Sequence record: ON528743
Reading direction: 5' to 3' (one strand)
Source of the DNA: Shigella phage ESh33
DNA: 64,000 nucleotides
Shown: piece after piece, positions 48,366-51,761 of the stretch
How positions within the stretch are numbered: position 1 is the stretch's first letter
Layout of the letters: each line of letters begins with the position of its first letter
Program-made: the position numbers and the translations under genes
Notes under the pieces: generated by a model
Database searches by the model: none
Told to the model about the DNA's origin: nothing
What the model saw: only the letters and a program-made list of their open reading frames with translations

Positions 48366-48586
48366 TGGCAAAGATAATTATTGAAGGTTCTAAAGATGTG
48401 CTAAATGCTTTCGCCGAGTGGTTTAGTAATTCAGGCGAACAGCAATTTAATGAAGCCTGGAATATGGGTGATATTGATGGAATTTATCCTACGACAGAAA
48501 TTTCTGTTCAAGGATATGGCATTCATGAACCTATTCGTTTAGTTGAATATGATTTATGCACTGGTGAGGAAGTCAAATATGATTGA
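48365..48586 (+). CDS. hypothetical protein (73 aa)
   Basis: TAATG overlap with previous gene. Confidence 0.55.
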   Translation: MAKIIIEGSKDVLNAFAEWFSNSGEQQFNEAWNMGDIDGIYPTTEISVQGYGIHEPIRLVEYDLCTGEEVKYD

Positions 48587-48845
48587 AGATATTAAAGGTT
48601 ATAAGCCGCATACCGACGAAAAAATCGGTAAAGTAAATGCTATTAAAGACGCTGAAGTTCGTTTAGGACTTATCTTTGATGCTTTATACGATGAATTTTG
48701 GGAAGCATTTGATAGCTGTGAAGATGATGAACTCGCGAAGAATTACGCCGAAAGCCTCGATCAGTTAACTATTGCTAAAACGAAACTCAAAGAAGCCAGT
48801 ATGTGGGCTTGCCGTGCTGTGTTCAAACCAGAGGAAAAATACTAA
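48579..48845 (+). CDS. hypothetical protein (88 aa)
   Basis: ATG 48579 with RBS GGTGAGGAAG; track start 48543 is an upstream extension. Confidence 0.5.
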
Positions 48846-49126: not shown

Positions 49127-49155
49127 TTTACTTTTCCTCTTGACTGTGGTATAAT
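49127..49155 (+). promoter_or_regulatory. sigma70-like early promoter for regB
   Basis: TTTACT-17-TATAAT with TG extension. Confidence 0.65.
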
Positions 49156-49651: not shown

Positions 49652-50197
49652 ATGAGAAAAGCACTACTCGCTGGTCTATTGGCCATTTCAATGATGGCAC
49701 ATAGCTCCGAGCATACTTTCAGTAATGTCCAACTCGATAACATGCGTTACGCGTATCAATTCGGGGAACAGTTTTCTAAGGATGGAAAATATAAAACACA
49801 CAAAAATATCCACAAGAGCGGATTAGGTCATATAATGGCTGCTATTTTATGGCAAGAAAGCTCTGGCGGAGTTAATTTAAAATCTAAACCAAAGCATCAC
49901 GCCTACGGAATGTTCCAAAATTATTTGCCTACTATGCGAGCAAGAGTTAAGGAACTTGGTTATAATATGACCGATGCTGAAATAAAAAGAATGTTGAATA
50001 AACGGTCCAATTCAGCTTCCTGGGCGTACATTGAACTTTCTTATTGGTTAAATATACATAAGGGCGATATAAGAAAAGCAATATCCTCTTATAATTCGGG
50101 ATGGAATGTTAAAGCTGGTTCTAAATATGCTTCTGAAGTCCTAGAAAAGGCTAATTACCTTAAAAATAATAAACTTTTGGAAATAGTAAATGACTAA
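49652..50197 (+). CDS. secreted lytic transglycosylase-like protein (SLT domain)
   Basis: Signal peptide MRKALLAGLLAISMMAHS; motifs WQESSGG, AYGMFQ, SYNSG resembling family 1 lytic transglycosylases. Confidence 0.6.
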   Translation: MRKALLAGLLAISMMAHSSEHTFSNVQLDNMRYAYQFGEQFSKDGKYKTHKNIHKSGLGHIMAAILWQESSGGVNLKSKPKHHAYGMFQNYLPTMRARVKELGYNMTDAEIKRMLNKRSNSASWAYIELSYWLNIHKGDIRKAISSYNSGWNVKAGSKYASEVLEKANYLKNNKLLEIVND

Positions 50198-50537
50198 AAT
50201 TTTGGTTTTATGTATAGGATTAATTTCATTTTCTGCTTCTGCATCAGCAGATACATCATATACTGAAATTAGAGAATATGTAAACCGCACTGCGGCAGAT
50301 TATTGTGGGAAAAATAAAGCATGCCAAGCTGAATTTGCACAGAAATTAATATATGCATATAAAGACGGAGAAAGAGATAAATCAAGCAGATACAAAAACG
50401 ATACATTGTTAAAACGATATGCTAAAAAGTGGAATACCTTAGAATGTTCAGTTGCGGAGGAGAAAGATAAAGCCGCTTGTCATTCAATGGTTGACCGTTT
50501 GGTAGATTCTTATAATCGAGGATTGAGTACTAGATGA
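50190..50537 (+). CDS. secreted small protein (115 aa)
   Basis: N-terminal signal peptide MTKILVLCIGLISFSASASA; four Cys in mature part. Confidence 0.55.
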   Translation: MTKILVLCIGLISFSASASADTSYTEIREYVNRTAADYCGKNKACQAEFAQKLIYAYKDGERDKSSRYKNDTLLKRYAKKWNTLECSVAEEKDKAACHSMVDRLVDSYNRGLSTR

Positions 50538-51013
50538 TTGTAAAATATATCAAGGGCGATATTGTCGCCCTCTTTCTTGAAGGTAATATTATTGCGCATG
50601 GGTGTAACTGTTTTCATACAATGGGCAGTGGTGTAGCTGGTCAATTAGCAAGAGCCTATCCCAAAATTTTAGAAATAGATAAAACCACTACTGAGTACGG
50701 TTCTCGTGATAAATTAGGCGATATGTCTATTGTTTTTAAACATAAACCTAATGGTTTTGGCATATGTTATAACTTGTATACGCAATACGAACCAGGTCCT
50801 AATCTTGATTATGGTGCTTTAGTAAACTGCATGATAGAATTAAATCTACAGGCAGAAACCCTTTTGTTTAAACCAGTAATTTATATTCCACGCATAGGTT
50901 GTGGTATTGCTGGCGGTGATTGGGATAAGGTTTCTAAATTAATTGACATGTTTACTCCTGATATTGATTTAATAGTGGTGGATTATGAAAGTACATTACC
51001 CACATCCGTTTGA
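50534..51013 (+). CDS. macro-domain-like protein (putative ADP-ribose binding or hydrolysing)
   Basis: 159 aa; HGCNCFHTMGSGVAGQL and IGCGIAGGDWD resemble the two glycine-rich macro-domain motifs. Confidence 0.55.
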   Translation: MIVKYIKGDIVALFLEGNIIAHGCNCFHTMGSGVAGQLARAYPKILEIDKTTTEYGSRDKLGDMSIVFKHKPNGFGICYNLYTQYEPGPNLDYGALVNCMIELNLQAETLLFKPVIYIPRIGCGIAGGDWDKVSKLIDMFTPDIDLIVVDYESTLPTSV

Positions 51014-51197
51014 TCCTAAAAACAAAGTGGAAATTATTCGTCAATGGGAACGCATTTGTCGTACTAAATGTCCAATTAATAGTCCACATGATGTAGATAA
51101 AGACTACATTGGAACATTCGTTGAATATACCTTTATTGATAAGAAAGGTCGTAAACAACATGTAGAAGAATATTGCTTAAAGGTTACATGGTTATGA
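50985..51197 (+). CDS. hypothetical small protein (70 aa)
   Basis: ATG after GGTGG; overlaps 3' end of macro-domain ORF. Confidence 0.5.
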   Translation: MKVHYPHPFDPKNKVEIIRQWERICRTKCPINSPHDVDKDYIGTFVEYTFIDKKGRKQHVEEYCLKVTWL

Positions 51198-51400
51198 GCC
51201 AAACTAGTATTCTTAAAAATGCCCACTGTGAAAAGTGTAAGTGGCCGGTTGTTTTTGCTTTATGCAACGATGAAATGGCTTGTGATTTCGATTATTGGTG
51301 CTATTGTTCTAATAAAGGATGCATCAATCATAAAGGTGAAGGATTTTATTCAGGATTTTATCCTTATCCTGATTTCGTTAAAGAAGGTAAACCAAAATGA
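51188..51400 (+). CDS. Cys-rich small protein (70 aa)
   Basis: ATG 51188 after AAGG; 10 Cys in 70 aa (CEKCKW...CNDEMACDFDYWCYCSNKGC); track start 51173 is TTG. Confidence 0.5.
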   Translation: MVMSQTSILKNAHCEKCKWPVVFALCNDEMACDFDYWCYCSNKGCINHKGEGFYSGFYPYPDFVKEGKPK

Positions 51401-51576
51401 ATAGTTTTGAGTTACAATACGAAGTGTTACGTGAGCTTGATAATTTAATTGAACTCGCTGTTAATAAAGGTTTTGCCATTGGAATCGGTCAAAAAGATAC
51501 TGGTCATTTAACTATGGAAATATTTAAGCAAAAGCGAATTATTTTAAAACTCCTGGAAATTAATATACGAGTCTAA
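51397..51576 (+). CDS. hypothetical small protein (59 aa)
   Basis: ATGA overlap with previous stop; below track cutoff; followed by a 62-codon open frame without ATG. Confidence 0.45.
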   Translation: MNSFELQYEVLRELDNLIELAVNKGFAIGIGQKDTGHLTMEIFKQKRIILKLLEINIRV

Positions 51577-51761
51577 GTAAAGAACAAAAAGATAAATTGT
51601 TTGAGCTTATCCATGAACTTCTAGATGAGCATACAGAAGCAAACACCTTTTATGATGAATATGGCCCGCTATCTCCCGAACAGCAGGAAGAATTTGCTGA
51701 TCGGTTTGATAAGAAAGAAAACGAATTAATAGCTTATGTGAATACGCTTTAAGAAGGTGAT

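Follow-up and report, generated by a model that had tools for sequence, protein, structure and literature searches.

Background

The DarTG2 defence acts through the toxin DarT2, which puts ADP-ribose on thymidine (at N3) where the phage DNA is single-stranded, and by this means blocks replication. Among the macrodomains that act on thymidine-linked ADP-ribose (T-ADPr), SCO6735 of Streptomyces coelicolor frees DNA of the mark and rescues cells from DarT toxicity, is inactivated by the substitutions Q85A, Q85E and N27S, and has been proposed to cleave by means of water, with Gln85 (kept in place by Asn27) setting the position of the distal ribose, the ring oxygen of which the Gln contacts in a model (PMC9411070). 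Furthermore, the backbone of its Val25 (or Ile) is proposed to position the catalytic water, a feature that was called SCO6735-specific by its authors (PMC9411070). T-ADPr is also cleaved by human TARG1. On the phage side, gp104 of PhiKZ (a chimallivirus macrodomain that is likewise named AdfM; Cell Rep 2026, PMC13309987) removes DarT2-made ADP-ribose from a TNTC oligonucleotide in vitro (PMC13309987). In phage T4, the gene tk.4 was tied to the same defence by the HIDEN-SEQ preprint (bioRxiv November 2025, 10.1101/2025.11.20.689424), in which the screening of a T4 transposon library on a host that expresses DarTG2 singled out tk.4 as its one significant hit, the preprint having worked at 30 °C in M9-glucose. 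A clean T4 tk.4 knock-out was found to be DarTG2-sensitive (genetic evidence, at the preprint stage), the gene was given the name adfM (AdfM, anti-DarT factor Macrodomain), and the authors propose that AdfM enzymatically strips ADP-ribose from DNA (10.1101/2025.11.20.689424).

In RefSeq, the tk.4 genes of T4 and JS98 are described as "phosphatase; Tk.4; contains A1pp phosphatase motif", and "macro domain protein" is an existing label in many GenBank records of tk.4 relatives. The literature thus covers the gene and its domain and, in the case of the T4 ortholog, the action against DarTG2; what is added here, on the basis of the allele carried by Shigella phage ESh33, is the case for a Gln-type active site, for a distinction from both DarG and the AdfM of PhiKZ, and for an exchange of the allele as a cassette.

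Genomic context

The window (i.e. the whole 64,000-nucleotide stretch of Shigella phage ESh33 DNA that was analysed, record ON528743) is of Tequatrovirus type: phage JLBYU24 matches a 4-kb region at 98.7% identity, and the best phage matches of a 25-kb region (several T4-like phages) stand at 96-97%, none in the phage collection reaching 99% along the entire region. An earlier reading of the DNA from its letters alone (the sequence-only reading) had located a macro-domain-like protein in the regB-tk interval, a placement that we narrow to the vs-tk interval, in which the gene bears the T4 name tk.4 and has vs and tk.3 as its immediate neighbours. The tk.4/adfM ortholog (50534..51013, + strand) is an ATG-initiated ORF encoding a protein of 159 aa and 17.5 kDa. 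Its pI of 5.1 makes this protein acidic, which is not obviously expected of a DNA-binding enzyme and counts as a point against such a role.

Upstream lies vs (valyl-tRNA synthetase modifier; 50190..50537, + strand), the product of which is 100% identical to T4 Vs, and the stop codon of which overlaps the tk.4 start codon in an ATGA (50534..50537, + strand; from direct sequence reading and the ORF coordinates), a layout that would allow translational coupling. A Shine-Dalgarno-like GAGG (50519-50522, + strand) is situated 11 nt 5' of the tk.4 start, and downstream tk.3 (DUF7202; 50985..51197, + strand) shares its first 29 nt with the 3' end of tk.4. The gene order, as given by annotated relatives and T4, is regB, vs.1, vs, tk.4, tk.3, small ORFs and tk, and the Pfam matches around tk.4 comprise RegB, an SLT domain (Vs.1), DUF7202 (Tk.3) and thymidine kinase. 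A second counter-defence gene, Acb2/Vs.4, is present near tk.4. The scan for sigma-70 promoters and terminators between 48800 and 52600 was uninformative (12 promoter-like sites versus 14.7 expected from shuffles); the best promoter-like site on the + strand falls at 49127-49155, 5' of regB.

Since the ORF occupies the same slot between vs and tk.3 that tk.4 holds in T4 and JS98, we assign it as the positional ortholog of T4 tk.4. The two proteins (T4 Tk.4, NP_049723, has 155 aa versus the 159 aa found here) are 58% identical over 155 aa in a gap-free alignment (E=4e-70), belong alike to PHROG 335 (the 'phosphatase' label of which is also the RefSeq annotation of T4 Tk.4), and have in common the motifs HGCNC, NLYTQ and IG.GI..G.W, while differing within loop 2 (IGCGIAGGDW in the ESh33 allele versus IGAGIGKGNW in T4 Tk.4). 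The sequence-only reading had surmised that a phage macro domain could reverse the ADP-ribosyl marks of bacterial defences, and had pointed to the plating of a deletion mutant on DarTG hosts as a check. For the T4 ortholog this experiment has in essence been done, and the sensitisation of the tk.4 knock-out to DarTG2 (10.1101/2025.11.20.689424) lends support to that surmise. We consider that the ESh33 allele probably encodes a thymidine-ADPr DNA glycohydrolase that counters DarTG2; we infer T-ADPr hydrolysis for an allele that has no more than 58% identity with the T4 protein on which the genetic test was made.

Fold assignment

The 159-aa protein is almost certainly a macrodomain. The Pfam profile PF01661 (Macro) matched it above the gathering cut-off (E=6.2e-8; 33.1 bits, where 22 are required), over residues 22-136 of the protein and positions 2-117 of the 118 in the profile, and PHROG 335 (which carries the label "phosphatase") did so with an E-value of 1.6e-71. 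A single-sequence search of the PDB returned macrodomains only, with BT1257 as the best sequence match (2e-10), followed by yeast Poa1p (2e-9), SCO6735 (9e-8), Mycobacterium tuberculosis DarG (1.4e-5) and TARG1 (0.009). With a profile of 63 family sequences the corresponding E-values were 1.5e-19 for BT1257 (74 bits), 1.2e-16 for TARG1 (64 bits), 1.7e-15 for SCO6735 (60 bits) and 4e-15 for Poa1p (59 bits), and those for DarG were 6.5e-12 (M. tuberculosis, Mtb) and 1.6e-10 (Taq), at 44-49 bits. The AlphaFold2 model built from the 63-sequence family alignment (mean pLDDT 94.4, pTM 0.89) has the three-layer alpha/beta/alpha architecture of the macro fold, as judged from the model itself and from Foldseek. 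The latter gave 176 PDB matches at E<=1e-3, of which the top ones listed are all macrodomains or macrodomain-scaffold designs, with TARG1, Poa1p, BT1257 and the DarG proteins of Taq and Mtb at probability 1.00 and a TM of ~0.72. The macro-domain likeness, which had first been recognised at the level of motifs, thus goes far past chance in profile (Pfam Macro, PHROG 335), fold and synteny, and the Pfam comparison and the structural model that had been named as ways of checking it both bear it out. Homologs of the protein were recovered by tblastn from 2773 phage records, the hosts of which include Escherichia, Klebsiella, Salmonella, Pseudomonas, Vibrio and Acinetobacter, along with other phages.

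The same searches bear on a metabolite-processing role, in which the macrodomain would act as an Appr-1''-p phosphatase (Poa1p-like) or as an O-acetyl-ADP-ribose deacetylase and clear NAD-derived small molecules. We regard this as improbable, even if the A1pp annotation of T4 and JS98 in RefSeq and the 'phosphatase' label of PHROG 335 speak for it, Poa1p comes near the top in both the sequence and the fold comparisons, and His23 of Poa1p (in 'IHSCNC'; mutated in PDB 6LFS) aligns with the invariant H22 of the ESh33 protein (in 'AHGCNC'), the middle of Poa1p falling outside the alignment. The label, however, stems from the old domain name A1pp and not from an assay, and the role is without genetic support, the sole known phenotype of an ortholog being the loss of DarTG2 resistance. 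Moreover, no phage or host pathway that makes Appr-1''-p during T4 infection is known. Phosphatase and DNA-ADPr activities are, in any case, not mutually exclusive.

Active-site residues

With regard to the preferred reading (a glycohydrolase acting on T-ADPr in DNA), the two motifs quoted in the sequence-only reading are indeed present in the ORF. The first, HGCNCFHTMGSGVAGQL, makes up the loop 1 region (residues 22-38, H22-L38; 50597..50647, + strand) and contains the invariant H22, G23, N25, C26, G33 and A35; the second, IGCGIAGGDWD, constitutes loop 2 (residues 121-131, I121-D131; 50894..50926, + strand), i.e. the second Gly-rich diphosphate-binding loop, with A126 at the position of TARG1 D125. 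The segments N25...G31-S-G33 and I121-G-C-G-I-A-G-G128 align with the Gly-rich loops of TARG1, DarG and SCO6735, and the two motifs also align with the conserved Gly-rich loops of BT1257. The N80-L-Y-T-Q84 motif (50771..50785, + strand) has Q84 at the position that is held by the catalytic Lys in TARG1 (K84) and DarG ('FPTK') and by Gln85 in SCO6735. Invariant in 63/63 members of the family alignment are H22, G23, N25, C26, G33, A35 and D49, together with N80, Y82, Q84, P119, G122, G124 and W130; the catalytic Lys of DarG (Taq K80) and TARG1 (K84) is absent from the tk.4 family, all 63 sequences of which have Gln in its place.

These correspondences were read from several alignments. The HMMER alignment of TARG1 with the tk.4-family profile sets Q84 opposite K84 and A126 opposite D125. 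With hhalign, H24, V25, N27, N81 and Q85 of SCO6735 pair with H22, G23, N25, N80 and Q84 (probability 98.7, E=1.6e-16; the SCO6735 sequence was taken from the PDB alignment, and its residue numbers agree with PMC9411070), and the Lys of the 'FPTK' motif in Haliscomenobacter DarG pairs with Q84 (probability 98.6). The DarG reference derives from a darT-darG operon on a Haliscomenobacter plasmid, which was retrieved via plasmid tblastn and the two proteins of which score 415.7 bits (DarG) and 218.8 bits (DarT) with the respective NCBIfam equivalogs. A seven-sequence MAFFT alignment also placed the Lys of DarG, TARG1 and PhiKZ at Q84, but mis-gapped the 'ANMIGQHG' segment of SCO6735/BT1257, and the HMMER profile and hhalign, which agree with each other, were relied on instead. 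With Gln at the Lys position, the ESh33 protein is not a DarG-type enzyme, and these alignments place it with SCO6735 and BT1257 among the Gln-type macrodomains. For an active site of this type, the reversal of DarT action has an experimental precedent.

The absence of the classical catalytic Lys would equally suit a non-catalytic neutralisation of DarT2, whether by binding and inhibition of the toxin or by the sequestering of ADP-ribosylated DNA or of NAD-derived ligands. That dead variants of SCO6735 (Q85A), DarG (K80A) and TARG1 (K84A) inhibit DarT in vitro, SCO6735 most of all (PMC9411070), gives this possibility a precedent, and still we think it unlikely to hold here: the C-terminal domain through which DarG binds DarT is absent from the ESh33 protein, and a stoichiometric mode of action would demand high expression of a small early protein. 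Furthermore, Q84, N25 and H22 are strictly invariant across 63 diverse homologs, which is the pattern of an active site, and in view of this strict invariance we favour catalysis over non-catalytic inhibition.

Proposed mechanism and substrate

For a catalytic T-ADPr glycohydrolase, we envisage that the two Gly-rich loops of the Tk.4 macrodomain would grip the ADP-ribose, and that hydrolysis of the bond between ribose and thymine would restore the phage DNA. The chemistry would probably be that of SCO6735, rather than that of DarG or TARG1: Gln84, positioned by Asn25, may bring both the distal ribose and the transition state into the right orientation for a water-mediated cleavage, which would proceed without a Lys nucleophile or acid.

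A broader reading of the substrate would have Tk.4 act mainly on ADP-ribosylated protein or RNA (e.g. on the marks of Alt/ModA/ModB or of further ADP-ribosylating defences such as CmdTAC), or degrade ADPr-derived immune signals, and this we hold to be very unlikely. It draws on the breadth of SCO6735 and TARG1, both of which also act on Glu/Asp-linked ADPr in proteins and on ADPr at the phosphate ends of RNA, but SCO6735 fails to act on 2'-OH ADPr of RNA. Alt, ModA and ModB, moreover, modify arginine, and the arginine-ADPr linkage is not known to be cleaved by macrodomains; for the suggestion of the sequence-only reading that the phage's own Alt/ModA/ModB marks might be reversed, no evidence was found. 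The HIDEN-SEQ screen, for its part, linked tk.4 specifically to DarTG2. CmdTAC defends strongly against wild-type T4, itself a carrier of tk.4 (PMC11618068), from which it follows that Tk.4 does not neutralise CmdTAC. A link between macrodomains and CmdTAC was also considered and set aside as unsupported, the former appearing only in the reference list of that paper (PMC11618068). The removal of DarT2-made T-ADPr from DNA is, on balance, the role that we prefer.

Allelic mosaicism

The ESh33 allele lies in a mosaic segment (50550..51030), in which the identity to T4 passes from ~100% to 40-86% over the body of tk.4, and the identity to JS98 amounts to 85-94%. In sliding windows along the nucleotide sequence, identity to T4 is ~100% up to ~50550, stands at 98-100% between 51050 and 51150, and collapses from 51170 to 51760, the tk.2/tk.1 region of T4 being replaced by other small ORFs. 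The encoded proteins follow the same course: RegB (99.3%), Vs.1 (100%), Vs (100%), Tk (99.5%) and rI.1, rI and rI.-1 (100% each) are virtually those of T4, Tk.3 stands at 92.9%, and the tk.4 product at 58.1%. Measured against JS98 (Dhakavirus), the tk.4 product is 94.3% identical, and the surrounding proteins are far more distant (RegB 58%, Vs.1 68%, Vs 46%, Tk 70%). A tk.4 that is 58% identical to T4 and 94% to JS98, set between flanks that are 99-100% identical to T4, shows that the allele was acquired by cassette exchange, a JS98-type tk.4 cassette sitting in a T4-type backbone. Residues 1-38 (loop 1 included) are nearly identical between the ESh33 and T4 alleles, which would fit a recombination joint within the 5' part of tk.4. 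The ESh33-type allele is found (tblastn) at an identity of at least 90% in ~318 phage records.

Taken together, these observations show the tk.4 allele moving from one T-even genus to another as a self-contained cassette, and so precise an exchange of alleles fits what would be expected of a counter-defence locus. A more far-reaching idea, which we put forward tentatively and consider doubtful, is that the Tk.4/AdfM clade represents an independent lineage of Gln-type (SCO6735-like) T-ADPr glycohydrolases, separate from DarG antitoxins and from the AdfM of PhiKZ, and that the two alleles, swapped between T-even backbones that are otherwise identical, differ in specificity. Were this the case, each allele might suit particular DarT2 variants, further toxins that ADP-ribosylate bases, or inhibitors from the host, and tk.4 would qualify as an arms-race locus. 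More generally, phage macrodomains that erase ADPr from DNA would help to explain the resistance of T-even phages to DarTG2, and would count in predicting the host range of phages among clinical strains that are rich in defences.

Comparison with known systems

DarG (NCBIfam NF048014; PDB 5M31, 5M3I) has the macro fold in common with the ESh33 protein (TM ~0.72) and presumably the same substrate, the T-ADPr made by DarT2. The PADLOC model of DarG matches the ESh33 protein at 4.3e-7 over positions 3-144 of 329 (the macro half only), and NF048014 does so at 1.4e-6 over positions 2-142 of 338, with 27.8 bits, where 250 are required of an equivalog. The ESh33 protein has no counterpart of the C-terminal domain with which DarG binds DarT (the match being confined to the macro half), and no darT (DUF4433) was found beside tk.4, where the neighbours are vs and tk.3. 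The possibility of a captured DarG antitoxin was rejected in view of the missing C-terminal domain, Lys and adjacent darT, and of profile scores that are lower for DarG (44-49 bits) than for BT1257, TARG1, SCO6735 and Poa1p. The Gln-type active site calls for caution, both against the label "DarG homolog" and against attempts to mutate a Lys that does not exist.

SCO6735 (PDB 5E3B) and BT1257 (Bacteroides; PDB 2FG1, 2AFC) are, like the ESh33 protein, Gln-type, ALC1-like-class, stand-alone macrodomains of ~155-160 aa, with which it has ~25% identity. Q85, N27 and H24 of SCO6735 correspond to Q84, N25 and H22, and loop 2 is of the form RIGCG(L/I)AGG.W in this type and in the ESh33 protein alike. 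The differences are as follows: Val25 of SCO6735 is replaced by the invariant Gly23 of the tk.4 family; the mobile loop that carries the DNA-binding Lys89 and Lys94 of SCO6735 is shorter here and without Lys89 (Q84 is followed by a 5-residue deletion in the hhalign alignment); the position of Lys34 is taken by Ser32 (hhalign); and the gene of SCO6735 lies on a bacterial chromosome and is induced by DNA damage, whereas tk.4 is a phage gene. TARG1/OARD1 (human, PDB 4J5R) is the best fold match, but its catalytic dyad K84/D125 is exchanged for Q84/A126 in the ESh33 protein.

Among phage proteins, PhiKZ gp104 resembles Tk.4 in being a stand-alone macrodomain; it counters DarTG2 and is imported into the phage nucleus. 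It keeps the Lys of the DarG-like 'FPTK' motif, where the ESh33 protein has Q84, and is related to the ESh33 protein family distantly (hhalign probability 96.1, E=3e-9). Given the retained Lys and a relation that is only distant, the two proteins named AdfM belong to distinct lineages of macrodomains, which converge on one and the same defence system. T4 AdfN (gene 30.3, NADAR; PMC11825919) is, as Tk.4 would be, an orphan antitoxin-like hydrolase with which T-even phages erase DarT marks, but it has the unrelated NADAR fold, and its target is the guanine-ADPr left by DarTG1, as opposed to the thymidine-ADPr of DarTG2 that is proposed for Tk.4.

Mosaicism at the borders of tk.4

The point at which nucleotide identity to T4 begins to decay in tk.4 (the macrodomain gene) coincides exactly with a perfect, GC-rich hairpin of 8 bp (AGGGCGAT-ATT-GTCGCCCT; 50553-50571, both strands), which falls within tk.4 codons 7-13 and whose sequence is identical in T4. 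Scored as terminator-like in the scan and followed by a T-rich tract, this hairpin could have arisen by chance, but it could also form a structure in the RNA or mark a recombination joint. At its other end, tk.4 overlaps tk.3 by 29 nt (50985-51013), an arrangement shared with JS98 (Dhakavirus), whereas the corresponding overlap in T4 spans 4 nt. The C-terminal ~9 residues of the window Tk.4, which have low pLDDT in the predicted model, come from reading the 5' end of tk.3 in the alternative frame.

In place of the T4 tk.2/tk.1 region, three different small ORFs were found in the window (51170-51760, +). This stretch comprises a 68-aa ORF (51194-51400, +; Pfam Phage_zn_bind, 2.3e-29), a 59-aa ORF (51397-51576, +) with no Pfam family match, and a tk.2-like DUF7438 protein (51597-51752, +) that is closer to the JS98 protein (88% identity) than to T4 Tk.2 (52%). 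The 59-aa ORF is missing from JS98 (the window-JS98 alignment has a gap at 51400-51600). As judged by sequence comparison, 51170-51760 is a second mosaic island, adjoining tk.4.

Gene neighbourhood and related macrodomains

Two genes upstream of regB, an 88-aa ORF (48579-48845, +; Pfam Acb2_Tad1_hairpin, E=1.6e-19) is, on the strength of its sequence, the ortholog of Vs.4/Acb2. Acb2 is a cyclic-nucleotide sponge that counters CBASS, and its proximity to tk.4 therefore places two counter-defence genes within ~2 kb. Vs.1 (181 aa; 49652-50197, +) carries an SLT lytic-transglycosylase domain (Pfam, 1.4e-5) and is 100% identical to its T4 counterpart; its N-terminus (MRKALLAGLLAISMMAHS) is hydrophobic and signal-peptide-like, and the following gene, vs, has a signal-like start as well.

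The name AdfM was given independently to two proteins, PhiKZ gp104 (PMC13309987) and T4 Tk.4 (bioRxiv 10.1101/2025.11.20.689424). These are distant relatives only (hhalign E=3e-9), the former being Lys-type and DarG-like, whereas the latter is Gln-type (by the residue at the DarG/TARG1 catalytic Lys position). Moreover, loop 2 of T4 Tk.4 (IGAGIGKGNW) departs from the consensus of its own family (IGCGIAGGDW).
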